Source of the DNA: Heptranchias perlo
Lineage: Eukaryota
Direction: 5' to 3'
NCBI RefSeq assembly: GCF_035084215.1
Contig: NC_090355.1
Span: forward strand, 21,762,001 to 21,826,000
DNA length: 64,000 nucleotides
Position numbers and translations under genes: made by a program. How positions within the stretch are numbered: position 1 is the stretch's first letter; every line of letters starts with the position of its first letter. Below the pieces are notes generated by a model, which had not been told where the DNA came from, ran no database searches, and saw only the letters and a program-made list of their open reading frames with translations. This document shows positions 38,001-59,610 of the stretch, in pieces.

Positions 38001-41000
38001 ATTTGCCATGTATCTGCAGTAAAAGAGTGTCTCAGCTAACTCAGTGGAAAAAATTTATGACTGAGTCAACATGTTATAGGGACATTTCCACACAACTTTG
38101 AAAGATGTTACATACCTCATTATCTTGGCACTAAATTCCACTTTTAAATCCGAAGAAACCTATTGCATATTTATTCCATTTAGGCACTGAAGTACATAAA
38201 CTAGTCACACATAACTGTCACAAAAGAATACCTTCATGTAAATAACTTATGGTTAATGTTCTTCCAATCAGTTTGTGTTCATTTTAAACTGTGGTGTTAA
38301 ATATTAATTCTAACTGATTTACTGAAGCATGCTCCAACAAGTCTGGTGCAGCAAATGATAATGAGGTATGTAACATCTTTCAAAGATGTGTGGAAATGGT
38401 CTCTAAAACCTCGCATTTGAATTTCTATACAAAAAAGGGAGTATGTTTGACTAAGGGAACTTCTAATACTGCACACTCAAGGAGAGAAGTAATGCAACAG
38501 TGATGATACAATTAAGACCTACTAAAAAGCATCCAGTTCACTTCTAACAAGTCGACATTTAAATGCCCCACGTTGCTTAACTAGAACGGTGACCTGCATT
38601 TATATATAGCGCCTTTAACAACCACAGGATATGCAGAAGCACTTTACAGCCAATAAAGTGCTTTTTTGAAGCATAGTCACTCCTATAACATAGGGAAATA
38701 TTGTAAACAATTTTACAACACATTTATGTAATTACATTTATGTAATTTCCACACCACCTGAGGAAGGAGGAAGCCTCCGAAAGCTTGTGGGATTAAAAAT
38801 AAAATTGTTGGACTATAACTTGGTGTTGTAAAATTGTTTACAATTGTCAACCCCAGTCCATCACCGGCATCTCCACATCATAGGGAAATATGGCAGCCAA
38901 TTTGTGCACAGCAAGGTGTCACAAACAGCAATGAGATATGGATTATCTGGTTACGTAAGACCATCAGAGGTAGGAGCAGGCCATTTGGCCTCGAGCCTGC
39001 TCCACCATTTAATGAGATCATGGCTGATCTGATTTTTACGTCAACTCCACTTTCCCATCTTTTCCCCATATCCTTTGGCCTCCTTGTTGATCAAAAATTT
39101 GTCCAACTCACCCTTGAATGTATTCAATGACCCTGCCTCCACAGCTTTTTGGGGTAAAGAATTCCAAAGATTCATGATCCTCTAGGAGAAGAAATTCCTC
39201 CTTACCATCTTCAATGGGCGACCCCTTATTCGGAGACTATGCCCCCTTGTTTTAGATTCCTCCATGAGGGGTAACATCCTCTCAGCATCTTATGTTTCAA
39301 TGAGATATCTCATTCTTCTAAACTCCAATGAGTGTAGACCCAACCTGTTCAATCTTTCCTCATAAGACAACCCTTTCATTTAAAAAAAAATGTTGGTTGA
39401 TGGATAAAGATTATCCAGGTCATTGGGAGACTGCCCCTGTTCTTTTGACTAGTGTCATGGAATCTTTTACAGCCACCTGAGAGGGCAAACTAGGTTTAAC
39501 ATCTCATCTGAAAGTCTCTGGAGTGGGGCTTGAACCCATGACCTTCTGCCTCAGAGAGAGTGCGACCACTGAGCCAACGCTGGATGGTTGTAATCTTCCA
39601 GAAGTCACTCGATTCTAGAAAGGTCCCAGCGGATTGGAAAACCACAAACGTAACACCCCTATTCAAGAAGGGAGTGAGACAGAAAGCAGGTAACTATAGA
39701 CAAGTTAGCCTAACATCTGTCATTGGGAAAATGCTATAATCCATTATTAAGGAAGTAGTAGCAGGACATTTGGAGACTCATAACACCATCAAGGAGAGTC
39801 AACATGGTTTTATGAAGGGGAAATCGTGTGACATTTATTAGAGTTCTTTGAGGAAGTAACGGACAGGGTGGATCAAGGGGAGCCAATGGATGCAGTATAT
39901 TTGGATTTCGAAAAAGCATTCGATAAGGTGCCACATGAAAGATTACTGCACAAGAGAAGAGCTTATGGTGTTGGGGGTAATATACTAGCATAGAGGATCA
40001 GCTAACTAACAGAAAACAAAGAGTCAGGATAAAAGGGTCATTTTCAAAATGGCAATCTGTAACTAGTGGAGTGCCACAGGGATCAGTGCTGGGGCCTCAA
40101 CTATTTATAATATATATCAATGACTTGGATGAAGGAACGGAGTGTCCTGTGGCCAAACTTGCTGATGATACAAAGATAGGTGGAAAAGCAAGTTGCGATG
40201 AGGACAAAAGTGTCTGCAAAGGGATATTGACAGGTTAAGCGAATGGGCAAAAATTTGGCAGATGGAATATAATGTGGGAAAGTGTGAAGTCATCCACTTA
40301 GGGAGGAAAAATAAAAAAGCAAAATATTATTTGAATGGCAAAATACTACAAAATGCTGCAGTACAGAGAGATCTGGGTGTCCTCTTACATGAAAGAGGAA
40401 GTCAACATACAGGTGCAGCAGATAATCCAGAAGGCAAACAGAATCTTGGCCTTTATTTCTAAGGGGATGGAGTATAAAAGCAGGGAAGTTATGCTACAAC
40501 TATACAGGGTGCTGGTGAGACCACACCTGGAGTACTGCATACAGTTCTGGTGCCCTTATTTAAAAGGAAGGACATACTCACGTTGGAGGCAGTTCAGAGA
40601 AGGTTCACTAGGTTGATTCCGGGTATGGAAGGGTTGTCTTATGAGGAAAGATTGAACAGGTTGGGTCTACACTCACTGGAGTTTAGAAGAATGAGAGGAG
40701 ATCTTATTGAAACATACTAGATTCTGAGGGGACTCGATAGGATAGATGCTGAGAGGATGTTATCCCTCATGGGGGAATCTAAAACTAGGGGGCATAGTCT
40801 CAGAATAAGGGGTCTCCCGTTTAAGATGGAAATTAACAGGAATTTCCTCTCCCAGAGGGTCGTGAATCTTTGGAATTCTTTACCCCAAAAAGCTGTGGAG
40901 ACTGAGTCATTGAATACATTCAAGGCTGAGTTAGACAAATTTTTGATCAGCAAGGGAGTCAAAGGATATGGGGAAAGGGCGAGAAAGCGGAGTTGAGGTA

Positions 41001-42457
41001 AAAGTCAGATCAGCCATGATCTCATTAAAATGACGGAGCAGGCCCGAGGGGCCGAATGGCCTACTCCTATCTCTTATGGTCTTATATAGTAGAGAAAAGA
41101 AAGATCTTCACAACATAGACCATTTCTCTCGTGTTATCAGCTCTTCACTCATGGAATAAAATGGGCATCCACTCTACCAACTGTATATTCTCTGATATGA
41201 TTGCAGTTTGTCACCACCAACCATTTTTTGCTGGCATTGTACAGCAGTCAACAGTTTTCCACTAGAATATTCAAGACCTCAGAATAAAACAGTATTTCAT
41301 AGGTTATTTTTAAAAATGTGTCATTTGTAACTGCCAATAACTTAAATTTATTGGTTGCACTTCTCAGGTATCAGTGGCAAGTAATAATGCTTGATTAAGG
41401 CATCCATTACTTATTGAATTTCGGCCTTCTACCACTTGAGCATATTTTTTCCTTTTCTGTAAAAGGCAATCTGTATTTACATATTCTTGCATTAGATTGT
41501 ATCAAGCTCTGCATATCTCGGCATCAGCCAGTGAATGCAACACTAATCGCTATCAGTAGCTACACTTCTGATTTACAACCTCTTCAAAAAGCAGCCGCAG
41601 TTTTATGCTTGTGTGCTTCAACAATTCATTTTGCAGCTCACATGCCAACCCCACATCATTAAGCCTCATGCTACAAACCACCTTCCAGAAGAATATCACC
41701 ATTTCCAGTAAGAGATGACACATACATTCCACTGGAATCACAACACTTGTATTCTTTCTTGCATAAGATCATTTAATATTTTTTCTTTTAAAAACGAGCC
41801 AGAATTCACCTCAATTTTCCAAAATCAGCAGTTTTCTTTCCAAGAGCAATTCAGCACATGGATTTCTTGTAGAAATTATTTGATAAAGGAAGAACAAATC
41901 ACCAGCTGGCGTAAGTGTTGTATTAGAAGGAAATGCAGATAGGGTTAGATGAAGTAGGATGGGAGACGGCTCGTGTGGAGCATAAACACTGGCACAAGCC
42001 ATATGGGCCGAATAGCCCGTTTCTGTTCTGTAAATTCAATGTAATTAAAAAGGGCAACAATTGAAATGAAAATAACTTTTTGAAGCAGTTTTTGTTAAAG
42101 CTAAAAAAAAATTCAGCATGCACACATTTAGGGTAACGTCAATACTGTAATATGAACACTTTCATTATATACTATTGCCCCACAAAAATATTAAGAGGAA
42201 GGGAAATATTTTTATTCAAAATAATCTGCTTTTCATAAAAAGATACAAGTCACTGAATGCTGCAAAGGAAAAGACACTGCAATTTTCCAGAAAATCAAAG
42301 TGAGTCCAACTGATTTACTGCACTGACCTTAAGCCATTGAACAGCTGTTTGGATTTATCAAGTAGGTAGCAAAAATCAGTAACTGTCTTCCTCTCCCCCA
42401 ATGGAATATCATCATCGGTTCCTCCCCCTGCTGTCATGGCTCCTTCCAGATTCAATA
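6512..42457 (-). CDS. SCAI: SCAI (suppressor of cancer cell invasion), partial multi-exon gene; 10 coding exons visible, continues beyond the left edge
   Basis: Spliced translation [69 protein letters not shown]...[27 protein letters not shown] is recognisably vertebrate SCAI. All introns are GT-AG and exon phases are compatible (1024 coding nt). Confidence 0.97.
6827..7026 (-). mobile_element. Penelope-like fold-back terminal fragment (family B) with degenerate hammerhead motif
   Basis: TSD cttgctttca(a/t)taaa at 6812-6826 and 7027-7041; inverted arms; minus strand reads CTGACAA-A-AGGTT-ATC-GACCT-GAAA. Confidence 0.75.
7074..7399. mobile_element. hAT/Charlie-like MITE
   Basis: Perfect 8-bp TSD GTTTAGAC (7066-7073, 7400-7407); right TIR AGTTTGGACACTCCTG; left TIR degenerate. 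Confidence 0.55.
8430..8531 (-). CDS. SCAI: SCAI exon ([34 protein letters not shown])
   Basis: 102 nt; ccctag acceptor, gtttgc donor. Confidence 0.96.
9040..9430 (-). mobile_element. Old tRNA-headed SINE-like repeat
   Basis: Minus strand has A-box-like GGTTCAG and B-box-like GGTTTGATCCC; body matches the 2985 family. Confidence 0.55.
9454..10355 (+). mobile_element. Jockey-group (CR1-like family 2) LINE, 5'-truncated
   Basis: ORF 9468..10307 [31 protein letters not shown]; conserved 3' tail. Confidence 0.9.
11295..11396 (-). CDS. SCAI: SCAI exon ([34 protein letters not shown])
   Basis: 102 nt; ttttag acceptor, gtgagt donor. Confidence 0.96.
11700..11990 (+). mobile_element. Old tRNA-headed SINE-like repeat
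   Basis: Same motifs as the 2985 family. Confidence 0.5.
12178..12416. mobile_element. PIF/Harbinger-like MITE
   Basis: 13-bp perfect inverted repeat GTACATTTACACT / AGTGTAAATGTAC; GGG start; TGA/TTA flanks. Confidence 0.55.
13118..13270 (-). CDS. SCAI: SCAI exon ([51 protein letters not shown])
   Basis: 153 nt; ttatag acceptor, gtatgt donor. Confidence 0.95.
13720..14115 (+). mobile_element. Old tRNA-headed SINE-like repeat
   Basis: TGGCTCAGCTGG A-box; body matches the 2985 family. Confidence 0.55.
15418..15458. repeat. (CA)n microsatellite
   Basis: About 20 CA units. Confidence 0.98.
16897..16995 (-). CDS. SCAI: SCAI exon ([33 protein letters not shown])
   Basis: 99 nt; accag acceptor, gtctgt donor; phase 0/0. 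Confidence 0.95.
17190..17540 (+). mobile_element. Old tRNA-headed SINE-like repeat
   Basis: gccacttgggcaagatatcagagggctgct motif shared with the 2985 family. Confidence 0.5.
18410..18970 (-). mobile_element. L2 LINE fragment
   Basis: [21 protein letters not shown] and [11 protein letters not shown] peptides. Confidence 0.8.
19118..19214 (-). CDS. SCAI: SCAI exon ([32 protein letters not shown])
   Basis: 97 nt; ttgtag acceptor, gtatgg donor; peptide visible in ORF 19079..19288. Confidence 0.96.
19578..19676 (-). CDS. SCAI: SCAI exon ([33 protein letters not shown])
   Basis: 99 nt; tttag acceptor, gtatga donor; peptide visible in ORF 19391..19675. Confidence 0.96.
20838..20924 (-). CDS. SCAI: SCAI exon ([28 protein letters not shown])
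   Basis: 87 nt; cctag acceptor, gtaagt donor; peptide visible in ORF 20837..21055. Confidence 0.96.
22020..22565 (+). mobile_element. Jockey-group family-2 LINE 3' fragment
   Basis: Highly similar to 9820-10355. Confidence 0.9.
22983..23078 (-). CDS. SCAI: SCAI exon ([32 protein letters not shown])
   Basis: 96 nt; ctaacag acceptor, gtttgg donor; phase 2/2. Confidence 0.96.
23800..27640 (+). mobile_element. Highly degraded long CR1 (ORF1 esterase-like remnants to RT end), interrupted by a Harbinger relic
   Basis: GVHL-like, [28 protein letters not shown] and [11 protein letters not shown] remnants in colinear order. Confidence 0.6.
24985..26110 (+). mobile_element. PIF/Harbinger transposon relic (DDE transposase C-terminal fragment, frameshifted)
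   Basis: [31 protein letters not shown] and [29 protein letters not shown] resemble the HARBI1-type motif series. Confidence 0.75.
27934..28035 (+). mobile_element. Degraded Penelope-like family-B terminus with hammerhead core
   Basis: AGTT-CTGATGA-actatatct-GAAA-TATT-AACT followed by tail remnant. Confidence 0.55.
28320..29135 (-). mobile_element. Jockey-group family-2 LINE fragment
   Basis: ORF 28597..28923 [18 protein letters not shown].. Confidence 0.9.
29630..29880 (+). mobile_element. Old tRNA-headed SINE-like repeat (3' part)
   Basis: tgaagaatggccacttgcacaaggtattggagggctgcc motif. Confidence 0.5.
32009..32040. repeat. (AT)16 microsatellite
   Basis: Read directly from the sequence. 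Confidence 0.98.
33800..34160 (+). mobile_element. Degraded CR1 3' end
   Basis: acaagaggtagttactatgtgg..ctgcca..gggccacatggcctgtttct. Confidence 0.55.
35030..36500 (-). mobile_element. L2 LINE fragment
   Basis: [37 protein letters not shown] peptides; L2 3' tail at 35040. Confidence 0.8.
37360..37900 (-). mobile_element. L2 LINE 3' fragment
   Basis: acaacaacttgcatttatatag tail; homologous to 51525-52215. Confidence 0.8.
38590..39580 (-). mobile_element. Deu-domain SINE interrupted by a PLE fold-back and a CR1 3' end (38955-39375)
   Basis: Colinear with the copy at 43990-44395; tRNA head with gggttcaagccc B-box on the minus strand. Confidence 0.8.
38702..38878 (+). mobile_element. Penelope-like family-A terminal insertion with hammerhead motif and short inverted 5' arm
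   Basis: TSD CATAGGGAAATAT at 38689-38701 and 38879-38891; CTGAGGA-A-GGAGG-AAG-CCTCC-GAAA-GCTT at 38758-38786. Confidence 0.85.
39581..41083 (+). mobile_element. CR1 LINE, 5'-truncated RT plus 3' UTR
   Basis: PQGSVLGP / ADD motifs, [29 protein letters not shown]; frameshifted. Confidence 0.92.
42328..42457 (-). CDS. SCAI: SCAI exon containing likely start ATG at 42437 ([37 protein letters not shown])
   Basis: Acceptor ttttcag; ATG in GCCATG context; donor AAG|gtcagt; ends in phase 2. Confidence 0.93.
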
Positions 42458-42974
42458 CTGAAAACTAATAATAAACTTTACATTAGTACATTGAACTACA
42501 AGTATTGTCTTACACATTATGGATATGTACATTATATAAACCTGTACCTCACCTAATTCCACGAAGGATTAAAAAAAAAAGCAGCACAACTATTCCATCC
42601 ATGTGACTGAAATAAAAATGAAGTTACTGGTCACTTGTAACCAGTGATACAGCCAACTTGGGAGACATTGCCCCATCAGTGACACACAAATGAAGTCTTG
42701 AACAGTTATTGCACAGTAGAGAGAGCCACAGCTTCAAGCTTGTTACACAATTAGTATGTTTATGACACTAATTTTGCCTGAACAGTCACTGTACTTCAAA
42801 AGTAATTCATTGTGTAGCACTTTTGAGAATCTCAACATGATAGTATTTGTATTTATTTAGCACTATTATTTAAGCACAAGCCATCCCTCAATTATGCAAC
42901 TCACTTGCAGCCATCTATTGTATTACAGTACATTGTGTCATGCAGTTATTAAGCCAACATTTACTGAATAAAAG

Positions 42975-43375
42975 GCTCTCCCTGATGGCTCAGCAAGTTT
43001 ATCTACTGACAAGTAAGCAAGAGAGACCAGCAGGGTCCTAGATTTGATTCTTGGTCTGTGCTGAGTTGGCTGATATTGCCTGGGGCAGTCAGTCATCGGG
43101 GTACTACAATTAGTGACAGTACCCATGGGCTAGGGAGATGAGAAAGAGAAAAAAAAAAGTTCCTGATCACTGTCCAGTGACCTGCTGGAACTGCCACTGA
43201 ACATTAAAGATGAAATCAGGTTCAACTGAGATGATATCCCTCACCATCAAATGAATGGTCTGCCAACACCCACTTTCAAGGCTAACAAGTGAATGATGGC
43301 CACTTAGGCAAAGTATTGTTGCTCATGGGACCGTTCTTCAGTAAAAGGATTCAACATCATCAGTAGAAAAAGGAG
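42975..43375 (+). mobile_element. Old tRNA-headed SINE-like repeat
   Basis: TGGCTCAGCA head; atggccacttaggcaaagta motif. Confidence 0.55.
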
Positions 43376-43989
43376 AAGCCACAAGCCACTATTAGGCAGA
43401 ACAGGAGTTAATTTTTTTTAAAAACAGCAGTTTTAAATTTTACGACGACTTTGCGTGGAATAAACAATTTCAGAACACATTGAGGCAACTAGAAGAATGA
43501 AATACTGTTCAAAATAATGCCAGTCAAATGTTACCATTGCAATCAACATAGCAACTCCAGTGCCCATGAGCAAGCCACCCATAAAACACCAATAAAAAAA
43601 CTCATTCCAGTATAATCACAACAGAAAGCACAAGATCCAGAGATGTCAAATGCATGATAGCAAAAAGGCTATCATTTCCATGTAATGACCATGTTTCAAG
43701 CCACTCCACTTTTTTTTAAATTTAAATATTCATAGTGCCAGGAGAACCATTTTAAATCAGAAAACAAGTTAAAAACTTGCTGGATAGGCCATTTATCCAA
43801 CAAGTAGGCACAACCAAACACACAATGCTCATCTTGGTATGAAGTGGTATCCAAGAGTTTACAAACATGATTACATTAATTTGTTAAACATTTATATTTT
43901 ATTTCCTGAAATCAGCTTTGTGTACACTGAATTAACCTTCACACTCCTGCAAAAAAAAGCTTGTAAAAAAGTGAAGCCACATTAAATAA

Positions 43990-44395
43990 AAAACATTTAT
44001 AGCACCTTTCACGACTATAGGACGTCCCGAAGCACTACAGTTATTGAAATATTTTTGAAGTGTAGACGCTATCGTAACGTAGGAAATGCAGCAGCCAATT
44101 TTGCACACAGCAAGGTCCCACAAACAGCAATGAGATACATAACCAGATAATCTGTGTTTTTAAAAAGATGTTGGATGAGAGATAAATGTTGGCCAGAGCA
44201 CTGGGAGATGCCATCCGATTTTTAGTGAGGGCAGATGGGGTCTCTATTTCACGTCTCATCTGAAAGACGGCACCTCCGACAGGGCAGCATTGAAATATCA
44301 ACCTGCATTATGTGCTCAAGTCTCTGGAGAGGGGCTTGAATCCATGACCTTCCGACTCAAGAGGCAAGAGTGCTACCACTGAGCCGAGGCTGACA
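43990..44395 (-). mobile_element. Deu-domain SINE, near full length
   Basis: Minus strand gtcagcctcggctcagtggtagcactcttgcctc..ggattcaagccc head; L2-like tail. Confidence 0.85.
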
Positions 44396-44969
44396 TCTTA
44401 GTTAAAGTTGCCTTTAATATAAACTAACTTGCACTATGACAACATTTTTTTTTTTAAAAGTCAAGAATTTGAAAGTTATTACAAGTGGAAGTTAATGGAG
44501 CATAGATGAACAGAAGCATATTAAAAGAACCTAGTCAAACAATATTTATGTTGATCGCATACACCCAAGACTGTGCTCTTTGAAGGAGGTAACAAAATGT
44601 ACAAAATACTTTATTTCCTGCAGCTGTGCAATGCTAGCTGGAATGTGAACTCCGGTTTCAGCATTTACTTGCTCAGTGACTGATGTAGTAGTGCAGAACT
44701 GTGTTCTCAGAATAAGCTGAAGCATAGCGTTACAGAGGATCTTGCTTTGCTAAGGACCTGCCTTGGTGAGGATCTCAATTCACACAATGTGATTCACTGA
44801 AACGCTGCTGACACAATAAGTTCTGAAAGCATTTTGAGTAAGTGAGAGCGGCAAGATGATCAGTTTTTTCTATGGGTGTGCCAATCCTGCAAGAGCTTCA
44901 TAAAATTTATACTACCTCCATTTTGCTGCAGCCCACATACAATTAACTGGAGGCATGCTTGAAGTATAA

Positions 44970-45875
44970 AATAGAAATCTTGGCAAAATTTACAACACAG
45001 AAGCCATCCATTCAGCCCATTGTGTCTGTGCCAGCTGAAAAAAAGCCATCCAGCCGAATCCCACTTTCCTGCTCTTGGTCCGTAGCAGCACTTCAAGTGC
45101 CTATCCAAGTACTTTTTAAGTATGATGAGGATTTCTGCCTCCGCCACCCTTTCAGGCAGTGAGTTCCAGACCCCCAGCACCCTCTTGATGGAAACATTTC
45201 TCAACTCCCCTCTAATCCTTCTGCCAATTACTTTAATCTGTCCCCAGTTATTAACCTCTCTGCTAAGAGAAATAGGTCCGTCCTATCCACTTTATCTAGG
45301 CCCCTCAATTTTATAAACCTCAATTAAATCTCCCCACACACTCTTCTGTTCTGAAGAAAACAACCCCAACCTATCCATTCTTTCCTCACAGCTGAATTTC
45401 ACCAGTCCTGGCATCACCCTCTTAAATCTCCCCTGTACCATCTCTAGTACAATCACATCTTTCCTGTAATGTAATGACCAGAACTGTACATAGTATCTCT
45501 AGCTGTGGCCTAACTAGTGTTTTATACAGTTCTAGCATAACCTCCCTGCTCTTATAATCTATGCCTCAGCCAATAAAGGAAAGTATCTCACATGCCTTCT
45601 TAACCACCTCATCTACCTGTCCTGCTACCTTCAGGGATTTGTGGCCGTGCACTCCAAGGTCCCTCTCTTCCGCTACACCTTAGTATCCATCATTTATTGT
45701 TCATTCCCTTGCCTTGTTTGCTCTCCCCAAATGCATCACCTTGCACTTCCCCAGATTGAATTCCATTGCCACTTTTCTGCCCAGTCCATTGATCAATTTC
45801 TGCAGTCCACAGCTTTTTTCCTCACTATCAACCACACAGCCAACTTTTGTATCATCTGCAAACTTCTTAATCATA
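44970..45875 (-). mobile_element. CR1 LINE 3' fragment
   Basis: RVLGVWNSLPERVAEA peptide; colinear with 1563-2470. Confidence 0.85.
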
Positions 45876-46004
45876 AATGTTAAGCCTTCTCCTCTCCATA
45901 AGTGGAATGATTAACTGCAGCAAGGGTTAATCACCCAGCAGACCAAACACTACTCAAACCTATCCAAATAAGTCAGGCAGTCAGGAGAATTAATGCTGCT
46001 TTCG

Positions 46005-46370
46005 ACTTGTTCTTGGGATGTGGGTGACGAGCAAGATTACAGTCATTGCCCATCCTTGTTGCAGAGCAGCAATTAAAAAAAAACTGAGCAGCTTGCTAGA
46101 CCACTTCAGAGGGCATTAAAAGTCAACCACAGTGTGGGACTGGAATCATGGATAGGCCAGACTGGTATGGATGACAAGTTCCCGTCAAGGAAGGAGAGTA
46201 CTACACCAGTTGGTAGTTCATTGCAACTGGCAGCTTTCATGGCTATTTTCTTCTGGTGCCAACCCATAAATTGCCACATTTATTGAATTCAATTTCACAA
46301 CACATCATCATGTTTGGAATTGAACACAGCCTCTAGGTTGGTAGTCCATAACAATAATGCTACTATACCC
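46005..46370 (-). mobile_element. tRNA-derived SINE sharing its 3' tail with the family-2 LINE
   Basis: Homologous to 48125-48555. Confidence 0.65.
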
Positions 46371-46449
46371 TGATAAAACTGAAATCACTCAGTGCACAGA
46401 CAGAAAACCCGCATTACTTGACACTGCATTTATAGAAATTTGCTAGTCA

Positions 46450-47277
46450 AATTTCGAAGTTTGCAGACGATACAAAATAGCAAGGATAGTGGCAGACTCC
46501 AGGAGGTGAGACATGACAAGCAATTTAATGCAGGCAAGTGTGAAGTGATGCACTTTGGGAAGAACATGGAGAGGCAGTATAATCTAAAATGGTACTATTT
46601 TGAGGGGGTGCATATTCACAAATCTGGGCAGGGCAAGTTGATATGGCGATTATGAAAGTGTATGGGATACTTGGCTTTGTAAATGAGAGCACTGAATGCA
46701 AAAACAAGGAAATCATGCTAAACCTTTACAAATTACTGGTTAGGCCTCAGCTGAGTATTGTGTACAATTCTGGGCACCACACTTTAGGAAGGATGTCAAG
46801 GCCTTGGAGAGGGTACAGAGGAGGTTTACCAGGGATGACGGACTTCAGTTATGTGGAGAGACTGGAAAAGCTGGGATTGTTCTCCTCAGACCTGAGGTGG
46901 TTCGATCCAACAAAGGTTTTCAAAATTATCTGAGGTTTTGAAATCGCAAGTAGGGAGAAACTGTTTCATCTGACAAGTGGGTCAGTAACCAGAGGTCATA
47001 GATTTAAAATAACTGGCAAAAGAACAAGAGATGAAATAGGAGAATTTTTTTCACGCTTACAGTTAGGATCTGGAATGCACAACCTGAGAGTGTGGTGGAA
47101 TCAGATTCCATAACAACTTTCAAAAGACAAAAGACAATTGGACATGTACTTGAAGAGGACTAATTTGCAGGGTTATGGAGAAAAAGCCAGAGTGCGGAAC
47201 TATATTGGACAGCTCTTTCAAAAAGCAAGCAGGCACGACAGGCCAAATGGCCTCCTCCTGTGCTGTTAAGATTCTAA
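46450..47277 (+). mobile_element. CR1 LINE 3' fragment
   Basis: [21 protein letters not shown] and [12 protein letters not shown] peptides. Confidence 0.85.
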
Positions 47278-48124
47278 AGACGTGGTTTTCAGAAGGAAGT
47301 AGAAAAATCAATATCCTTCTATCTAACACCATCACATTCTGCAATGATTACCAGGCCTAACATCTCCAGATATACAGGATAAGTTTCTGTATCCCTCAAT
47401 GCTGGAATTTGAAAAAAAGGTTAATTTGATTATTTAAATGGCTAAAATGTAAAAGGATAAAGGGCAGCTTTCCCCTCACTAACAGTACTTCTCAGTAATA
47501 GCAAAGCCTGTAATCCTAATGTAAGCAATTGCTAATCTTGAAATCTGTTGTATTGCCAAATTGGTAAACCTGCTTGATGATTACATAAGCTAATTAACAA
47601 ACCTCCTACACCAATTTTGAGTCTTTGTTCATTTACTTTGTTCTGACACAAATGGAGATGATTCAAAAAGTTATTCAACACACCTCCTTTAAAAATAAGG
47701 TTTCAAGTTAAAGATAGAGTATAAAGAAGAAAAAGATTTGAAGCTTTGCTTAAGATTAGAGTACTATTTGTCCTCCTGCAGGTGAGGAATGGAACATTTT
47801 CATTTTAGGCACCCAGTGTCAGAATCAAGCACTCAGGTCAAGTGCAGCATGGTCAGGTGTATAGTAATGGTCCCTCTACTCTACCTAAATCCCCAACTGC
47901 ATCAATATGACCTGTGGCTTCTCAGAATGAGATTGCCAATTCAATGCCAGTTAGTGGCAAAGCAGAAGCAATTTTGTTCTCAAGAACTCGATTAAGTCTG
48001 TTTACTTCAGGCAAGGCCTTTACTACTAACAGACAGAGGAAACTTATCAGTCTGGACAGAATTCAAACACCAAAGTAAAAGGCCATTTTTAACCCACAAT
48101 CACCAAGTCTAATTTTTTTTTAAA

Positions 48125-48555
48125 AAATTCATTCTCAGGACATGCCAATTACTAGTTGCCAAGATGGTGGTGGGCTACCTTTTTGAACCGCTGCAGACAG
48201 TGTGGTGTAGCAGTTTGATATAACTTAGTGGCTTGCTATGCCACTTCAGGAGGGCAGTTAAGAGTCAGTCACGTTGGAGAGAGACTGGAGGGTCAAACGA
48301 GTCAAACTGGATAAGAACAGCTGGTTTCCTTCCCCAAAGGGCATTAGTGAACCAGTTGTAGTTTTAGGACAATCCCATAGCTTCATGGTCACATTTACTG
48401 ATAAATAAATCTGGGAATAAATTGTTATTTTTTTTCAAAAACTGAATTCAAATTCTCAAACTGCCGTAGTCAGATATGAACACTCATTCTTGCAAGGTCA
48501 TTAGTACAAGCCTCTGGGTTACTCATCCAATAAGATAACCACTACACTACCGTAC
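48125..48555 (-). mobile_element. tRNA-derived SINE with family-2 LINE tail
   Basis: Minus strand GGTAGTGTAGTGGTTA head; ends ctgcagcggttcaaaaaggtagcccaccacc. Confidence 0.7.
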
Positions 48556-48724
48556 CTGATTTAATAGAGTGACTCCTGCAAAGGTTTCCGTGATTAGAGA
48601 GTTTCAAACTCGTTTTTTTTTCTGGCTACTAGAGTCCCTTGTATTAGGACGTACACTGAAGCAACTAACTTAAACAGCACACTAAAACCAACATGATACT
48701 GGGGCACAGAGGGTTAAATTACTA

Positions 48725-49145: not shown

Positions 49146-51524
49146 TGGAAAGCTGAACAGTAAATATATAAACTTCACGAACTGAGCACGATTTGGCCTT
49201 TGGTTGGAGGATATACTGCCCAAAGAGATCTCCGGAGAACCACAAGATTGTTTCTTGTCCAGTTCCTTAAATTTCTTTCTGCTGCAGTACAGTAACTTAG
49301 TGAATGAATGTGATGGAAAAGATCAATACTCCAAATCTGGTATTCTGCCAAAAACATCTGATGTTTGCGCAGTCTATGGTTAATCAAATGCATGTTGATC
49401 CATTTTGTTATTAAAAAATTTCAATTCATAATGTGTAGCTACACAACTGTATGAACTTAAATCTTGATTTAGGAGACCCAAAAAAAAGCTCACCACTAAC
49501 CAGTCCCCACCTTCCCAATTACATACCACTGTCTCTAATGAGGTAAATAGTAAAAACTTACATGACAATGTACATTTGTCCAAGTAGTACCACCTAATGT
49601 ATAGACAGGGATTAGTAAAAATGTGCATAGATTTGATAACAGGAAATAGTAAACCAGGAGTAGCAAAATGCTTCAGTTGAATTGATTCATTGATCATAAA
49701 CATCAATGTCAATAAACATTCTTGCAGACACTGTTCACAGGTGAAGCGACAATGTCCTTTTCCTGCACAAAGACAGGATTAGTATACTATATTGCAGAGA
49801 GACAGGATTAGTAAACTATATGGTGAATCTGAAAGTATATTCTTGTGCCATATTTATAATTTTCAGTAAATCACTGGTTATCCTGCATCCATTAGCAGAA
49901 CAAAATTCACAACCCCTATTTATTGTATACGAACTCCTACAACTCCAAAAAGCAGTATTCATTTTTTTGCCTTTTTCCTCCCCCCTCCCTTCACTCACCT
50001 TCCCACAACATACATCTCCTGCAACCAAGATTGGCAAATAAGGGCCATCAGCAGCAAAAAAGACAAACCCCAGATGATTACTTTTTTCCTCCCTCCTTAT
50101 CTGGAAATGTCTCTGCTCATCACCTCGCCATGGCCACGTGGCCGAGATCTGAAACTCCGAGTGGGAGATATCAATCCTGCACCCAACTACCCAGCGTAAT
50201 GCGCCAGTATGGCAACATGCTGCCAAATTGTGCCAATATTGTAATTGTTTCTTTAAATAATTTTAAGATATGCTGACAGCATTGAGAAATAAGCATACAA
50301 CTTGTGCACAATATAAAAAATACCATGGCTGCATTACTTCAGAAAATATAACTACAACAGATCCTAAACACTAAATAGCTCCTGCACTTCACTAAGCAAT
50401 ATATACAATTACAAATTAGATATAATTATAGACCAAAAAAAAAATCATGGTACAGAAAAGGCTGCTCAAGAACTTCAGTATACAAAAAGGTCAATATGGA
50501 ATTTATAATAAATCATTGTTCTCTTTGCAATAGATGTCAGTAGTGCATGATTGCAGTGAGAAGGTCACAACGTTCCGGCCACTGTATAACAAACTGAAAA
50601 TGATTTCAAAATCACATCACCTGGATTTTTTTTTAAATGTTTCAGATTCTATGAAAACAGTACTAAAGTAAGTACTCTGAACATAGAGAAGTAGTTGTAA
50701 AAAAAAGCTTCAAAATCTTTTCAGATTTTAAAAGATGCATATTTTCTTTTGGTGCAGAATCAGGAGTTTAAAAATAAGCCTTCCTAGTTATTGGTCTAGG
50801 ATCAGCATCCACTAAAAAAAAGCCATGAGATTGTCTTTACAACAGAACAAATTTTGAAAATAATTACACTAACAATTTAAGTTTTCATAATTGTGGATTA
50901 CAAATGTTATTCCTCCTTTTTTGAACAGGAGATAAAAATCTAATCAATACACCATTAGGCTTCCCCATAAAAAAAAACTACTTGATAATACAGAAACTTG
51001 ACAATTAAGTGAAAAATGAACAGAAAACTACAAAATACCATTTATACCACACATGGTCTCAGATGTTGGTTTTCACCTTTGATCATTTTAACTGTACCAA
51101 AAAGCTTCCCATATTATTTCAAGATTTAGTTATTTTCTCAATTTACATGTCTTCTTCATCCATGTGGCCCTGCATTCCATTCTCTTCAATTGCATGTAGC
51201 TCTCCCATCTCAACTAATGATGGAAATTATACCTCGATTTCTCCATGTATAAAATGTGCAATGCATATGCTGTACAATCATTCTGTTCCCTTCAGTTGCA
51301 TTAGAGAAAAGCCATGACTGATAACTCCATGTGTGCTTGCTTGACTGCACATTAATGATTGATACATCATATCACCAACACTGGAAATGCACAGTAAAGG
51401 CCACTGAATCCCTCATCAAACCTCCATAACCACCCTGCCTCCACCACCCCCTCCCCCCGCCCCAACCACTATTCTAATGCTCTCCTGGCCAGCCTCCCAT
51501 CCTCCACCCTCTAATCTAAATCAC

Positions 51525-52215
51525 AACAACTTACATTTACTCAGCACCCTCAACATAGTAAAACATCCCAATGCACTTCACAGAAGCGTGAACAAAATTT
51601 GACACCAAGCCACATAAGGAGAAATTAGGTCAGGTGACCCAAAGCTTGGTCAAAGAGCTAAGTTTTAAGGAGGGTCTTAAAAAGGATGAGGGGGTAGAGG
51701 GGTGAAGAGTTTTAGAGAGGGTATTCCAGAGCTGAGGGCCTAGGCAGCTGAACACACAGCCACCAATGGTAAAACAATTGAAATCAAGGATGCACAGAAG
51801 GCCTGAATTGGAAGAGCACAGAGATCAGAGGGTTATAGGGCTGAAGAAGGTTAGAGATAGGGAGGGGCAAGACCATGGAGGGATTTGAAAACAAGGATAA
51901 GAATTTTAAAATCCAGGTGTTGCCTTATCGGGAGCCAATGTAGGTCAGCGAGCACAGGGTTAGGGGTGAACGGGACTTGGCGCGAGTTAGGATACAGGCA
52001 GCAGAATGTTGGATGAGTTCAAGTTTATGAGGGTGCAAGGTGGGAGGCCGGCCAGGAGAGCATTGGAATAATCAAGTCTAGAGGTAACAAAATCATGGAT
52101 GAGGGTTTCAGCAGCAGATGAGCTAAGGTAGGGGCAGAGATGGGCGATGTTACAGAAGTGGAAATAGGCGGTTTTGGTGATGGTGAAAATATGGGGTCAG
52201 AAGCTCATCTCAGAG
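51525..52215 (-). mobile_element. L2 LINE 3' fragment nested among plus-strand L2 remnants (51420-51515, 52215-52370)
   Basis: Homologous to 37360-37900 and 4350-4787. Confidence 0.8.
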
Positions 52216-52559
52216 CCTCCTGTAAGATCCCCATTAAAACCTACCTCTGACCAAATTTATGGCCACCCCTAACAATCATCGGCTCTGCATCCACATATTA
52301 TGCATGACACCTCTGAAGCACCTTGGGATGTCTTTCTATGTTGAAGGTGCTGAATAAATACAAGTTCTTGTTAAAAGGGAGAGGGGGAAGTGCTTCACCA
52401 CATGTTTTATCAAGGTAAGAAAGATTACTTCATTGTTGAAGTACATTTTCCTCTTTCCATACTGACAGCAAGCACTCCAATGCCATGTTACATTCAATAC
52501 ACTGTACCACAGATTTTACAACACAGAAACAGGCCATTCGGCCCAACAGGTCTGCGCTT

Positions 52560-52775
52560 CAAATAGTACCACGGAATCTTATGTCCACCCGAGACAGCAG
52601 ACAGGATCAGAGTTTAACGTCTTATCCAAAAGACAGTAGCTCTGACAGCGTAGAACTCCCTCAGTACTGCACTGAAATGTCAGCCTTGATTATGTGCGTA
52701 AGTCTCTGGAGTGGGGTTTGAACCCATGGCTTTCTGACTGGAGAGTAACCCACCATTGAGCCAAGGTTGACACCT
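52560..52775 (-). mobile_element. Deu-domain SINE 5' part
   Basis: Homologous to 44220-44395. Confidence 0.7.
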
Positions 52776-53377
52776 AAAACGCAAAAATGGTTTTTAATTC
52801 CAATCATATTTTGTAACAATGGAGTGGAACAGCATCATCTCAGTTTCTACTCAATTTATTCAAGTAGTTAATCGCCAGACAGGAGGGTTCCCTCCCAGTC
52901 GGAGAACACTTCAGCAGTCAAGGACATTCAGCCTCCAATCTTCGGGTAAGCGTTCTCCAAGGCGGCCTGTGGAACACACGACAATGCAAAATCGTCGAGC
53001 AGAAATTGATAGCCAAGTTCCGCACCCACGAGGACGGCCTCAACCGGGATCTTGGGTTCATGTCACGCTACATGTAACCCCACCTGACGTAGAGTCATCC
53101 AGACTAAGTCGTAGTTGGCTTGTTCTCCATACACAGATGCAGCCGGACCTGCTGCGATTTCCAGCGAAAAAAAGTTATCTGTTTTCAATACAAACCCCAG
53201 CATCTGCTACATTTGACCCCTTGTGACCCCACCTCAGTATTCTTGGATGTAATGTTTCCCTGACTAACCTGTTTGAACACCATTCACTCCTTTGATTGCT
53301 GTGATTATCTCTCTGCCGAGGTGTGATAAAGGGCAGTTAGAAAGATTATCTGTAATCACCAGGCATTGTTCTCTGAC

Positions 53378-53412
53378 TATATATGCTGTGCCGATATGCA
53401 TCTCTTCACTTC
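53378..53412 (+). promoter_or_regulatory. Candidate TATA plus Initiator of the PLE pseudo-LTR
   Basis: TATATAT at 53378; TCACTTC (YYANWYY) with its A at 53408, 30 nt downstream. Confidence 0.4.
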
Positions 53413-53447
53413 ACCTGACGAAGGAGCAAAGCTCCAAAAGCTTGGGA
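53411..53447 (+). ncRNA. Minimal hammerhead ribozyme motif in the PLE pseudo-LTR (G12 mutated)
   Basis: TCAC-CTGACGA-A-GGAGC-AAA-GCTCC-aAAA-GCTT-GGGA. Confidence 0.6.
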
Positions 53448-54176
53448 TTTCAAATAAAGCTGTTGGACTCTTACCGGGTGTTGTGCGTCTCCTTACATTT
53501 AATCAGAGAGAGAATGCTCAATTAGTCATTTTATAATAAACTTGGAATTTGTTTGAAATTGACTGTTTTAAGATAATGGCCATTTAAAAAATAATGTACT
53601 TTGAAAGTATAATTAATGCCCAATGATTAAGGGAAGAAAATACCCATTTGATTCCCCGTCCCTCAAGTCAAATTATATTGGCCACGGGAATCAAGCGCCG
53701 CCTGGGACAACTGTCAGCTGATTGAGGAATTGGTGCCCTTCTCTCACATTCAAAATGGTAGTCAGGACAGCAGGAACATCACATTCTTTCACAGAAACTT
53801 CATTTTGTTCACCACTTGTAAAATCACACTGTTAGCTGCTCTGCCAATCATTCCAAGTTAAGGCCTGCACAGTGCATTGTTTCAGCTTGGTTAAATTTGC
53901 AGCACTCACACCTCTTCAAAAAGGTTGTGGGTTCAAGTCAGACTAGGATTTCAGCACATAATCTGGCCTGTGCAGTGGTGAGGCAGTGTTGCATTGTCAG
54001 AGGTATCCTATAAATGAAGTGTTAAACCAAGGCTCCAATGGATAAAAGAGCTATAGCACTATTTGGAGAAGAAAGGAGTTCTCCTACTGTTTTTGGCCTT
54101 GACTAATACCACTAAACACAAATTATCTGGTCATTCATTCAGTCATGTGGGACTTCACTGCTGCATTTGTCTAGAT

Positions 54177-54386
54177 GTGGAGATGCCGGTGATGGACTGG
54201 GGTTGACAATTGTAAACAATTTTACAACACCAAGTTATAGTCCAGCAATTTTATTTTAAATTCACAAGCTTTCGGAGGCTTCCTCCTTCGTCAGGTAAAT
54301 GTTTACCTGACGAAGGAGGAAGCCTCCGAAAGCTTGTGAATTTAAAATAAAATTGCTGGACTATAACTTGGTGTTGTAAAATTGTT
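54177..54386 (-). mobile_element. Penelope-like family-A fold-back insertion: perfect 86-bp palindrome with a hammerhead motif on each strand
   Basis: Arms 54214-54299 and 54302-54387; TSD TGCATTTGTCTAGAT at 54162-54176 and 54387-54401. Confidence 0.9.
54301..54341 (+). ncRNA. Minimal type-I hammerhead ribozyme motif (mirror copy on the minus strand at 54260-54300)
   Basis: GTTTAC-CTGACGA-A-GGAGG-AAG-CCTCC-GAAA-GCTT-GTGAAT. Confidence 0.7.
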
Positions 54387-55699
54387 TGCATTTGTCTAGA
54401 TAAGTGGCTGCCCTGCAAAAGTAGCACTTGAAAAAGTAAACCATTGTTTGTAAAATGCTCTGGGATATCCTGTGGATGTGATGAGTGCTATATCTTGTAT
54501 CTTTTTTGCTGCAAATTAATTTTAAAAATTCAGTTAGAAACTAAAATGCTCAAAAGGCTTAAAAAGGTCAAGGATGCTTAGGGTATGTAAACTATTAGTA
54601 ATGCTAAAGATTCTGTCTTCTGCATAGTTGAATGAAGTCTGGTTTCTAGAAAAGATTAGCTCTGCATGTTTTAAACAGATGTTTTTCATTGTGTTTGACA
54701 AATACAATGCAATCTGCAATGTTGTGGGTTATTTACAGTCACACTGTAACCCTGAATTGCAAGACCATATTTTTTTTTAATATTGTGACAAGTAAAGGGG
54801 AACTTGCAGCTTCACCAGTCTGTTTTCACTACCTTCTTTGGGTCAAAATAGATGACAGGCGAGATATATTGCACGATTCGCAGTAAATCTCAATGGAGGG
54901 ATGCAGGTGTGGGTAACTGATTAAAATTTCACCACCAAGCCAGAAACCACACAACAGCACAAATGCTGGTTCACAGTATTTCACCCGAGTACTATGGGGC
55001 TTTCCAGAACTGCCATTTTACTCTTGGGAGTAGTTCTTTCATAGAATTTCTAATATATACAGATACAATCACAATTAGTCATATTCTTTATATACCTCTG
55101 CTCATCTATTCCTCAATTCTTCCAATCACTCTCATTCTAGAAATGTCTAGTGATGTTGTCAATAGCAGTTTACAACCCTAAACCTAATCCCAACAACCAA
55201 CTTCTAAACCTAACCAACAACCTAACCACAAATCCTAGCCACTAACCCTAAAGCATGAATAAAGAGAGCGATGCAGAACCAGCTATGTGTCAATAGTCAT
55301 TGTGACATTGATGATACAGGTCGGCCACACTGTCAAGAGTCACTTATTCTTTCATCTTCCATTGTTTGGTTCCCCTATACCCTCTTGCATCATTGTCTCC
55401 AATTCTTTCAAATTCTCTTAAGAAATAGGCAGAGATTCCTTTTAAATAAACCTAAATGACTACTGTGATCCAATTACAATGACTATGTCAATAGTTGCAA
55501 ATGTTGCTGTTAAAATTTTTTTAGCTACTATGCACACATGGTTACTTTCTGACTTTATTCCTGATATTTTCCATACTAGTAACATGAGGGATTTTGCTGC
55601 AAATTGAACTATCAGGGAACTCATTTTTCTTTTCTTTTGCTTTTCTCTAGGAAAGAAATGACTGAAACACGAGTTTAAAATCCATAAAAACACTGTCTG

Positions 55700-55915
55700 T
55701 TTGCCTCCACCTCCCTCCTGTCTGAGCAGAAAACAATTGTCTGCTCTGCCTCCACCTCCCTCCTCCTTAAAACCTACCTCTTGGACCAAGCTTTGAGTCA
55801 CCAGTCTTAATAGCCCCTCTTTGGCTCGGTGTAAATTTTTGTCTGATTGCACTTCTGTGAAGCACCATGGGAAGTTTTCCTATGTTAAAGGCACTATATA
55901 AAAAGTAGTTGCTGA
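55700..55915 (+). mobile_element. L2 3' end
   Basis: Homologous to 4600-4787. Confidence 0.75.
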
Positions 55916-55928
55916 CGATTACACTTTA

Positions 55929-57239
55929 TTTAGAATGCAGTTCTCTTGGATCCGAGAATAGTTTTGATTGACCACTCTTAGTTGTAGAATGGTGCAAGGG
56001 ATAGGGAATGGAAGTGAAAAAAATTTAATTAGCAGGAGAAAACACTAAAGGATGAGAATGCGTTGTACCAGTGAAGGATTAAATGGCAGTTTTTTTTAAA
56101 ATCACCGATGTATGGTTTTTGTAAGGACTTTTGCTGGAAAATGTGCGCACAATGATTACCAAAATCAAGCTAAAATTTCTTGTCCACAATTTTTTGTTTA
56201 CTGTTTAAATGTTGCACATTTTTTTTTAAAAAACACTAAATCTATGAAATGCATGCATGCAGTGGTTCAAGAAGGCGGCTCACCACCATCTTCTCAAGGG
56301 CAATTAGGGATGGGCAATAAATGCCGGCCTCGCCAGCGATGCCCACATCCCATGAATGAATAAAAAAAATTATGGTTCTGTTTAAAAGGAATTTTATTTA
56401 GATTATTTCACAGGACCACAGGAAACCAGTCCTGAAATGTCACTTGAACATGTCCCAATCAGCTCACTCAAATCAAAAATTTTTCAAAATATTGATAAAG
56501 CAACTTTCTTCAGTTGTTAAAATTATACTTTTTAGATGGTGTTGGGAAAAAGAACGGCTGCTATATTAAAAAAAAATTACTATTTCCATTCAAAACTCAA
56601 ATGTGAAGCTAAAAAGTGTAAACAAAATATGGATAAATTTTAAAGACACAGGAACCAAATAAAAGCACACTAATTATTGGGCATAATTGTTCATCCAATA
56701 CAGTTAAAAGAATTAAGGGTATAGCAGTGTTTTTACATTTGAACTGGCCTTTCAAAGAATAAAATGTGTCTTCTGAAATTCCTTTTAAACAGAACCATAA
56801 TTTTTTTTATTCATTCATGGGATGTGGGCGTCGCTGGCGAGGCCGGCATTTATTGCCCATCCCTAATTGCCCTTGAGAAGATGGTGGTGAGCCGCCTTCT
56901 TGAACCACTGCATGCATGCATTTCATAGATTTAGTGTTTTTTTTTAAAATGTGCAACATTTAAACAGTAAACAAAAAATTGTGGACAAGAAATTTTAGCT
57001 TGATTTTGGTAATCATTGTGCACAAATTTTCCAGCAAAAGTCCTTACAAAAACCAGACATCGGTGATTTTAAAAAAAACTGCCATTTAATCCTTCACTGG
57101 TACAACGCATTCTCATCCTTTAGTGTTTTCTCCTGCTAATTAAATTTTTTTCACTTCCATTCCCTATCCCTTGCACGATTCTACAACTAAGAGTGGTCAA
57201 TCAAAACTATTCTCGGATCCAAGAGAACTGCATTCTAAA
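55929..57239. repeat. Long inverted duplication: arms 55929-56394 and 56776-57239, 381-bp spacer
   Basis: Arms are reverse complements with about 5 substitutions plus one homopolymer length difference; each contains a family-2 LINE 3' tail. Confidence 0.95.
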
Positions 57240-57264
57240 ACAAATCATTGAAAAAATGCCAGCA

Positions 57265-57700
57265 TCATGGAATCATACAGCACAGAAGGAGGCCAGTCAG
57301 CCCATCATGCCTATGCCAGCTTTTCAAGCAGCTATCCAATTCATACCCCTGCAATTATTTTTGCCGTTTCAATTATATGTCCACCCTTTCAGGCAGTGCA
57401 TTCCAGATCACAACAACTCACTGTAAAAAAAAAACTCTCACCTCCCCTCTGATTTTTTGCCAATTACCATAAATCGGTGTCCTCTGGTTACTGACCCTCC
57501 TGCCAGTAGAAACAGTCTCTCCAAATCTACTCCATCAAAACCCTTCATGATTCTGAACACCTCTTAAATCTCTCCTTAACTTTCTCTGCTCTAAGGAAAA
57601 CAATCACAGCTTCTCTCGTCACTCCACACAACTGAAATCCCTCATCACTGGTACCATTCTAGTAAATCTCTCAAAGGCCTTGACATCCTTCCTCCAATTC
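57265..57700 (-). mobile_element. CR1 3' fragment
   Basis: Homologous to 1563-2070. Confidence 0.8.
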
Positions 57701-59407
57701 AGGTGAGCAATGTTATGGGAAAAGTCTATGAGTATTTTTTTGACTTGCAATGTGGGGATTGCTATAAACTAATTAGTGTAGTATTATGAACATTGTTTGA
57801 GCCATGGTAGCTAATGATGGTGCAAAAGCATTACAGTAGTCAGTGTCCAACTTAAGTGCTGCCAAAGAAGCAAACTGAATTTTGCAGACAGAATTTCTGA
57901 ATTGGGATCAGTTATTATTTTCTGTCCCTCCAATGAAACTTCCTGCCTGTGGATTATCTACACTTTCTTCACTTTTGCACAAAGCAGCTTTCACCCAAAA
58001 CACTGGACACTTAGCGTACTAATAATTTAGTTATAAATCCATGCTTGCCTCCCCCTCTTTTTTTTTGTTCTTTAGTCCTCCAATCCATAAATGCTCATCT
58101 CAAAAATACAACACTGCACTATTATAATTCACTGTTTAATTTTTTTTTTGAATGATTAAAGATTCTACTTTGGCCCTAAAAGAGATGTTGTCATAACTGC
58201 AGCATCAATTCATCTTGAAAATTATTTTTCTTTTCTTCCCACTTCATCTTGCCTCCACAATCAACATGTGCCAGAAAGCTCCTCTCCATCCCAAATTAAA
58301 ATATTGAAATAGACAAGAGAATTGGGGAAGGGACAGTAATGAGAGGTGTGGGGAAATACAACCTATGTCAGCAGTACCAGATGGCACAGTGGGTTAGATC
58401 CTGGCCTAGTATTAAAGCCAGCAAACAAAACTAAGAGTTGAAGTTAATTTCGCCAATTTCAATCCATTTCCAAAACTGCCTCGAACCGCACTAAATTGAC
58501 ATTCTCATTTAAAGATCTTTTTTGGAAGTCCCCAACACAAAGTTTGAATAACATTGATCTAAACTGGACTGAATTTTATCACAACATAGCTGAGCTAAGT
58601 ACTTGCTATACTAAGCAGCAATTAGTCAGACTGATAAATGGGCTCTTAAATTATCAAGCTATCCTGCTGCTGGTGGTGAAGGAACCTGTTGAATTTTCTT
58701 GCTTCGGAGCTATGATTATCCGCAGTTTACAGTTCAATGAAATAGATTGCCAAATTTTAAACTTAGCACAAATGTTGAGAATTGTGGCTTGCTTTTGATA
58801 TGACATTACCTCAATTAACATTCCTACACACCTAAAATTTAACGTAATTAACATTCACAAACAGTACTATAGAAAAACTGCTTTGACATACTTAACACAA
58901 ACCAGTGCAATTTCACACTAAAGATTTATACCTCTTCTTACAAATAGTAAAGTTCCTCTTGTATTTTTTTTTGAGTGAGGAGAAATGATTATACATCCTA
59001 AACTATTGTAGCAAAGCGCTCAATGCAGTACAGCAAAAAGACTGCTTGGTGATGTCTGAATACATGTTAGCAAGAGATTTACTTAAACTCCAGTTCCTAA
59101 AAATGTATCTACCCACAGTCTTTGTTCAGTTCAAAATTCCCTTATTTAATCTTCAGCATTGCAACCATCTGAGCCCTTAAATTACCAATTAATCTGCTGA
59201 TCCAAGATTGCTCAGTAGATTCTGATCAAAACCTCAAATTTCCCCAGTGAACCATCTCATTAATAAATGCTGCAAAATGACATGCTCAGTGCTCACTTGT
59301 CTGGATAATTACATCTAGTTTTTCCTTGGTAGCCAGCAGCTTCTAACCATAGAAAGTAGATGCATCAGAGATTGAGAATTCTTTTATCTATCATTTATAC
59401 ATACACA

Positions 59408-59610
59408 TGTAAGGAATCTTACAACACCAGGTTATAGTCCAACAAATTTATTTTAAAATCACAAGCTTTCGGAGATTATCCGCTTCATCAGGTGAAGGGG
59501 ATAATCTCCGAAAGCTTGTGATTTTAAAATAAATTTGTTGGACTATAACCTGATGTTGTAAGATTCCTTACATTTGTCCACCCCAGTCCATCACCGGCAT
59601 CTCCACATCA
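59408..59610 (+). mobile_element. Penelope-like family-A (second subfamily) fold-back insertion with hammerhead motif
   Basis: Arms 59407-59487 and 59493-59573 (2 mismatches); TSD TTATACATACACA at 59395-59407 and 59611-59623. Confidence 0.9.

Follow-up and report, generated by a model that had tools for sequence, protein, structure and literature searches.

The hammerhead-like motifs in a 64,000-nt stretch of the Heptranchias perlo genome (NC_090355.1, positions 21,762,001 to 21,826,000; the window) are probably pseudo-LTR fragments of a high-copy Penelope-like element (PLE). By prediction, the minimal hammerhead ribozyme (min-HHR) they carry would cut only upon pairing of two copies via their AGCU palindromes, and the fragments found in the window are likely to be inert passengers. 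Six related sites were located across four PLE insertions, all of them short end-fragments (Table 1). The exact CUGANGA...GAAA...UH core in type I order is present at four of the six sites, and three sites (C3 at 38758 and 54307 on the plus strand and at 54294 on the minus strand) have a full core together with both stems. A profile was built from 41 copies, five of the six window sites being among them; this model recovers all six at E ≤1.2e-9, with the next-best window site at E 0.27. By its sequence, the motif is a minimal type I hammerhead of the kind already described, as opposed to a chance match.

Motif sites of the window

Table 1. Positions of the elements discussed. Coordinates are those of the window, or of the contig (C) named.
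Feature	Position	Strand	Basis
Target-site duplication of insertion 1, 10 bp, left copy (right copy 38880-38889)	38690..38699	+	sequence
Short inverted pseudo-LTR arm, 5' side of insertion 1	38700..38721	-	blastn
Insertion 1, short PLE copy without TATA-like box: predicted transcription start region, motif, ORF start codon	38745..38881	+	
Min-HHR of insertion 1, intact	38754..38790	+	sequence, 41-copy model
Insertion 2, older 5'-truncated PLE copy	52870..53500	+	tblastn and blastn
Min-HHR of insertion 2, core mutation G12→A (53436) and stem I mismatch, predicted dead	53410..53448 (C3 at 53415)	+	
Insertion 3, minus arm, with long tailed 3' end; its intact min-HHR has C3 at 54294	54174..54300	-	
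Insertion 3, plus arm, with short 3' end; its intact min-HHR has C3 at 54307 and a cut predicted after 54335	54301..54396	+	
Insertion 4, minus arm, with an intact core (C3 at 59491) and a stem II that contains a C·C mismatch	59403..59496	-	
Insertion 4, plus arm: truncated inside core (no CUGA), GGGGA/TCTCC stem, tailed 3' end	59492..59611	+	
Second PLE family (L102-L107)	C4:141.42-141.81 Mb, C1:198.12-198.27 Mb, C5:0.13-0.19 Mb, C9:89.32-89.38 Mb		
Second PLE family, further listed places	C6, C7, C8, C10, C1:0.93-1.02 Mb		

The motif of insertion 1 reads CCAC-CUGAGGA-A-GGAGG/CCUCC-GAA-AGCU-U-GUGG, with the core running from 38758, an extra A at 38765, stem II at 38766-38778 and the AGCU at 38782-38785. 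An earlier sequence-only reading of the window had noted the AGCU palindrome without a loop and a predicted cut after CUU; both are confirmed, the cut falling after 38786 here and after 54335 in insertion 3. The 131 bases from 38750 (38750-38880) are found identically at no fewer than 24 places in the 3.25-Gb genome. The gap between this insertion's main copy and its short inverted arm is filled by a 14-bp tandem duplication (38720-38747). Insertion 2 contains the end of a GIY-YIG coding region (52871-53083, 86% identical to P0001 824-894; P0001 is the element protein described below), a 3' UTR, a TATA-like box at 53378-53386 and the motif.

The remaining two insertions are head-to-head inversions (54294-/54307+ and 59491-/59497+), predicted to form hairpins of 85-95 bp. 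In the case of insertion 3 the arms make a 95-bp hairpin at 98% identity, with a direct repeat at the flanks (GCATTTGTCTAGAT); direct repeats were found at the flanks of three window insertions. The plus-arm motif of insertion 3 reads GUUUAC-CUGACGA-A-GGAGG/CCUCC-GAA-AGCUU-GUGAAU. The sequence-only reading had listed stem variants of four plus-strand copies as compensatory changes. Its stem II sequence GGAGG/CCTCC stands for the 38754 and 54301 copies, but the GGGGA/TCTCC variant (59497) lies on the truncated plus arm of insertion 4, which reads CAGGTGAA at the CUGANGA position and thus has no core, and the 53423 copy is the G12→A core mutant. The stem I sequences CCAC/GTGG and GTTTAC/GTGAAT are likewise upheld, but the 3' strand of the 53423 copy is GGGA and not GTGA. 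That inventory also lacked the minus-strand 54294 copy, both head-to-head inversions and the host PLE pseudo-LTR.

An Rfam scan of the window returned no hammerhead family at E ≤1; all four of its matches scored below the gathering scores, and those to mir-4716 and MIR161 were rejected, as they correspond to inverted-repeat hairpins. The loose pattern CTGANGA-N8-30-GAAA gave 13 window matches versus 5.6 expected, four of which are family members. The window also contains a 466-bp inverted repeat (55929-56394 / 56776-57239, 98% identity, arms 381 nt apart), the inner ends of which match the 3' end of a LINE-like repeat at 9.5-10.3 kb. Four fragments of one such LINE-like RT repeat are present (9465-10345, 21992-22564, 28326-29148 and 61699-62548; 84-90% identity), which we take to be CR1/L2-like.

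Host element and conservation of the motif

The tandem PLE unit is 3,081 bp long and occurs in head-to-tail arrays with one hammerhead motif per unit. At locus L064, three motifs are spaced 3,081 nt apart and two units have 0 mismatches. Each complete L064 unit encodes a 902-aa ORF (P0001), which starts 92 nt past the predicted cut; the motif lies 121 nt upstream of the start of this RT-endonuclease ORF, and AATAAA follows shortly downstream of the motif and predicted cut. PLE copies extending farther upstream reach the RT ORF. P0001 has an RVT_1 match above the Pfam cut-off (E 3.1e-10) and was without a direct GIY-YIG match in the Pfam scan. The GIY-YIG assignment was made by alignment and motif: P0001 shares 33% identity over 766 columns, spanning linker and endonuclease, with a Pfam-positive GIY-YIG ORF, and it contains a VVY...YIG motif. 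The linker that joins RT to EN is of the form CX4CX2C, and comparison with solved structures gave no match to P0001 at E ≤0.1.

The motif is present in both pseudo-LTRs of the element (loci L064, L065, L066 and L069). A single ORF with RT and C-terminal GIY-YIG, tandem or inverted insertions and, at one end, a tail of 30-40 bp are all found, as known for EN+ PLEs. On these predicted features the host of the motifs is a high-copy EN+ Penelope-like retrotransposon, with the motif in its pseudo-LTR. One unit (L065:231-1991) has its 5' ORF swapped for a ~51-bp tandem repeat derived from the ORF start. Contigs of four sequencing runs cover the element, with strand, ends and level unreadable and the run type not recorded as RNA; they were given no weight as evidence of expression.

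The core pattern matches the genome exactly 82,910 times (41,448 + 41,462), as compared with 4 matches for a reversed-pattern control; these genome counts are of copies, not independent events, and because the pattern holds the core fixed they cannot show core conservation. The unpaired base between A9 and G10.1 is an A in 82,910 copies and other or missing in 282, confirming the extra A after A9 reported previously. In 600 kb, a downstream anchor located 31 copies regardless of the motif, of which 23 retain the exact core: 18 have it without a TATA-like box and 5 have both, the other 8 being cut inside or below the motif.

The motif has the G10.1-C11.1 pair, and both stems I and II pair. Pairing was tallied at 78 loci picked by the core pattern or its variants, with 108 copies located by the downstream anchor; six of the 108 were dropped for want of a fuzzy motif match, and the resulting 102 may include a few duplicates from overlapping loci. 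Stem II pairs 1-4 are held in 99-102 of the 102 copies and stem I pairs 1-4 in 91-98. One-sided changes to G·U/U·G occur at stem I pairs 1-3 (in 5, 15 and 29 of the 102 copies), and pair 4 shows a U-A to C-G change. Genome-wide, the copies with G·U at stem II pair 3 number 6,585, those with G-C 2,542 and those with A·C 77. The loop-closing pair, which had been put forward as proof of covariation, does not serve that purpose: within the fold it is the pair least often held (79 of 102), and since at least 7,750 copies from a single background carry an A·C mismatch there, as do most stem II pair 3 G-C copies among the matches listed, it makes the poorest covariation witness.

We examined covariation in two alignments. 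The hand-chosen one combined 5 window copies with 36 of 66 variants, giving 41 rows, and the omission of 30 truncated or single-mutant variants favours pairing; shuffles reached the observed value in 0 of 500 on three of five measures, and in 65/500 and 216/500 on the other two. The unbiased alignment took all 29 model matches in 600 kb regardless of the motif (20 of them distinct). Here shuffles reached the observed value in 47/500 for percent paired, 39/500 for score and 283/500 for pairs with two-sided changes, and no measure beat the shuffles (39-426/500). Taken together, the two alignments give a mixed result. Slid controls are far lower in both alignments, at 26-53% paired, and single-motif folding z-scores are modest (-0.66 to -2.51 for six sequences). 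Of the earlier case for compensatory covariation, the cited pair, the core-less arm and the core mutant fall away; stem II pair 3, and the ACGU of a separate family, lend the fold better support. The proposed fold and dimer requirement fit the anatomy and the published min-HHR account (PMC4209133). It would appear that the RNA structure was kept in the amplified lineages, for which the stem II pair 3 counts speak more clearly than the loop-closing pair.

Copy ends, palindromes and rival explanations

In long copies a TATA-like box is located 62-76 nt upstream of the predicted cut, the motif following ~37-47 nt below the box. In the 38750 subfamily an Inr-like A (-42) lies 28 nt below a TATA-like box (-70). 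The 5' ends of 30 copies of this subfamily, at loci selected to contain -37 onward, comprise 17 at -38 to -47 (five of them at -42), none at -48 to -71, 3 at -72 to -91 and 10 beyond -100. For 92 short copies of mixed subfamilies, the 5' end lies <25 nt below the box in 4, 25-31 nt below in 36 and further down in 52, a measure sensitive to wrong subfamily assignment, which shifts ends downstream. The hammerhead cut was considered as the 5' end of inserted copies and rejected. A non-T just before the predicted cut was found in only 166 copies of GTGAATTT type, set against a denominator estimated at roughly 50,000 from the sampled share; junctions preceded by T are missed by this approach. When 30 of the 166 were inspected, 26 proved to be junctions and 4 substitutions. 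As 5' ends pile up ~30 nt below the TATA-like box and not at the cut, inserted copies are likely derived from uncut RNA. The 3' ends of unbiased matches cluster at two sites in 29 of 34 cases, with 15 at +92 to +96 and the remaining 14 at +55 to +61, and the distal end coincides with the ORF start codon.

In the tetramer A15.1-G-C-U16.1 the pairing A and U are separated by two bases, with no loop. Two bases cannot close a hairpin, so stem III cannot close within one motif. Genome-wide, AGCU occurs in 82,910 copies and ACGU in 638, alongside the non-palindromic AG[AGU]U (592), AC[ACU]U (176) and A[AU]NU (525); among the matches listed, these non-palindromic variants resemble scattered point mutants, CpG decay or chance. 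The amplified forms appear to be the palindromes AGCU and ACGU only, an argument that amounts to one two-sided change between two or three families and is suggestive, no more. An inversion at L165:3050-3210 turns exactly at an AAGCTT palindrome, and the palindrome may thus double as microhomology during insertion.

Within 3.6 kb of the first 100 matches on C1, a head-to-head partner is present for 46 and a same-strand partner for 24, with 11 at unit distance. The only near same-strand pair in the window (53415/54307, 892 nt apart) comprises one core mutant and one copy within a hairpin. None of the window copies is matched, within its own insertion, by an intact copy on the same strand; they are thus likely unable to pair usably as dimers and are likely to be inert passengers. 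The head-to-head pairs were rejected as dimers: their arms, lying on opposite strands, fold into long hairpins (-160.9 and -130.7 kcal/mol). Co-folding of two copies yielded strand-swapped stems I/II or other pairings and no dimer through stem III, which leaves energy models neither as support for the active dimer nor as a test of it.

We propose that a transcript reading from one pseudo-LTR into the next would carry one motif at each end. The two end motifs would pair via a 4-bp stem III formed between them, probably aided by the element protein, and the paired motifs would remove the capped leader together with the poly(A) end, leaving a unit-length RNA. Judging from the copy ends, the hammerhead cut would not make the insertion template. 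Reverse transcription instead likely starts on uncut RNA at two sites, 55-61 and 92-96 nt past the cut, and would mostly run off the transcript 5' end, giving ~95-140-nt copies and head-to-head pairs. More tentatively, and as a possibility we would not yet favour, the short copies, tens of thousands in number, may constitute a genomic RNA record, the 5' ends of which mark a TATA-driven start ~40 nt upstream of the predicted cut while steering clear of that cut. The hammerhead would then be no template-maker but a two-ended switch, firing only with both pseudo-LTRs on one transcript and removing cap and poly(A) end together, with the TATA-then-hammerhead layout recurring in a separate two-ORF telomeric-repeat PLE family.

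A role other than cutting would leave the hammerhead shape conserved for a different main job, as a 5' leader structure or as an AGCU pairing handle that joins two RNA ends, or two RNAs, on the element protein. This would account for inserted copies that cross the cut site intact and almost never start there, and it is in line with a PLE whose ribozyme mutants insert normally in vitro and for which no RNA-seq reads end at the cut (PMC11167929), and with Naiad PLEs, which multiply without the motif (PMC8557442). We nevertheless consider it unlikely. Every amplified subfamily sampled retains the full catalytic core and a cleavable NUH triplet, against variation in N7, loop II and the stems; the core is also kept in the 33%-identical family, and related motifs are reported to cleave (PMC4209133, PMC11167929).

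Cutting by a single motif, once the ORF protein holds its shape and with no second copy needed, is less probable again and in our view improbable. The monomer was inactive in PMC4209133, the geometry of stem III speaks against closure within one motif, and only palindromic tetramers at 15.1-16.1 were amplified, for which a monomer has no need. In favour of such protein-aided cutting, the anole PLE motif was cut only with protein added, the account leaving a dimer requirement unstated (PMC11167929), and a nearby same-strand partner exists for just 24 of the 100 genomic copies above. That the apparent covariation merely reflects shared descent of a few repeat subfamilies, free of selection on RNA structure, is very improbable, despite an unbiased alignment not above its shuffles, few independent events and a loop-closing pair that is often mismatched. 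At stem II pair 3, where two transitions are equally simple, the pairing-keeping one reached 6,585 copies in at least three backgrounds and the pairing-breaking one 77; a distant family with different stems still pairs, and pairing drops in the slid controls. The preferred reading remains a predicted cleavage by two motifs paired via AGCU.

Related elements and implications

The ACGU matches fall into a subtelomeric family (86 of 100 among the matches listed) and an old dispersed family; their stems are wholly different, yet they share the same core and extra A. The second PLE family forms tandem arrays of ~7.4-8.3 kb near contig ends, mixed with TTAGGG runs. Its ORF 1 (754 aa) has a weak GDSL/SGNH match (E 0.011, below the cut-off) and its ORF 2 (744 aa) encodes RT plus GIY-YIG, while its hammerhead has ACGU and a 7-bp stem I and is found immediately downstream of TATA-, CCAAT- and GC-box-like motifs. 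On C1 right, C4, C5 and C9 the family's 5' end is turned towards the contig end; C1 left and C10 depart from this pattern. We presume that Nereid is the Repbase name for telomere-targeted PLEs. This telomeric family is possibly more interesting than the window motifs. The old dispersed ACGU family (L080, L095-L099) has a varied stem II, with an RT-like frame upstream in L098. A search by title and abstract opening among the best-ranked open literature, subscription papers and Repbase being outside its scope, found neither a description of a telomere-targeted two-ORF PLE nor one of PLE 5' ends at a TATA-driven start. In Drosophila, Penelope is described as transcribed from the upstream pseudo-LTR, but from a TATA-less promoter (PMC2377424).

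The min-HHR of PLE pseudo-LTRs was described by Cervera and De la Pena in 2014 (PMC4209133), with an extra base between positions 9 and 10.1 and palindromic positions 15.2-16.2; the dimer and trimer were weakly active there, a result repeated in a review (PMC6765202) that also cites a paper titled for dimer cleavage. The present motif agrees with that description in its type I order, the absence of stem III beyond the core, G10.1-C11.1 and a stem I of 4-5 bp, in its presence in both pseudo-LTRs ~3 kb apart, in opposite-strand pairs and in a majority of single truncated copies. It differs in number, with 82,910 exact copies against 4,000-9,000 for coelacanth and Xenopus, and in a stem II of 4-5 bp, shorter than in the Schistosoma examples. 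In the passages compared, PMC4209133 names no shark, and its supplements may already list the H. perlo family. The small PLE hammerhead variants of Lunse, Weinberg and Breaker, compared by title and the review passage (PMC6765202), likewise cleave as dimers and may also include it. The motif, the dimer logic and the PLE home are thus already in print (PMC4209133), and what this family adds is scale and the copy-end record.

With Neptune/Nematis PLEs the element shares RT followed by C-terminal GIY-YIG, a CX2-5CxxC linker, into which the CX4CX2C of P0001 fits, partial tandems, an inverted 5'-truncated copy, a 30-40 bp tail and a pseudo-LTR hammerhead (PMC8557442), a likeness by traits that holds for the two clades together. 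In PAc (Poseidon of Anolis), two RT start sites are reported, uncut RNA is the main insertion substrate and cleavage needs protein (PMC11167929). Two RT start sites in an AC-rich stretch below the hammerhead are common to both, deduced here from copy ends. In PAc, however, the ORF starts inside stem II and RT begins 111-118 nt into the ORF (PMC11167929), whereas here the ORF begins 92 nt beyond the cut, its start codon coinciding with the distal copy end. Non-LTR retrozymes also carry a type I hammerhead related to PLE pseudo-LTRs, but they are short tandem repeats (bioRxiv 10.64898/2026.07.22.740005), in contrast to the single or head-to-head fragments of an autonomous element seen here; retrozyme identity was rejected, as the window holds no short non-coding tandem array and the 3,081-bp tandem unit is coding.

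With more than 80,000 young copies, the family offers a readable record of the changes tolerated by active masters and of where RNA templates start and end. The masters would seem to have tolerated G·U and G-C but not A·C, and palindromes only, and the identical intact tandem units provide a ready test system. The role of PLE hammerheads has been called unclear (PMC8557442). The copy-end record bears on what they are for, and agrees with in vitro data in which uncut RNA is the template.
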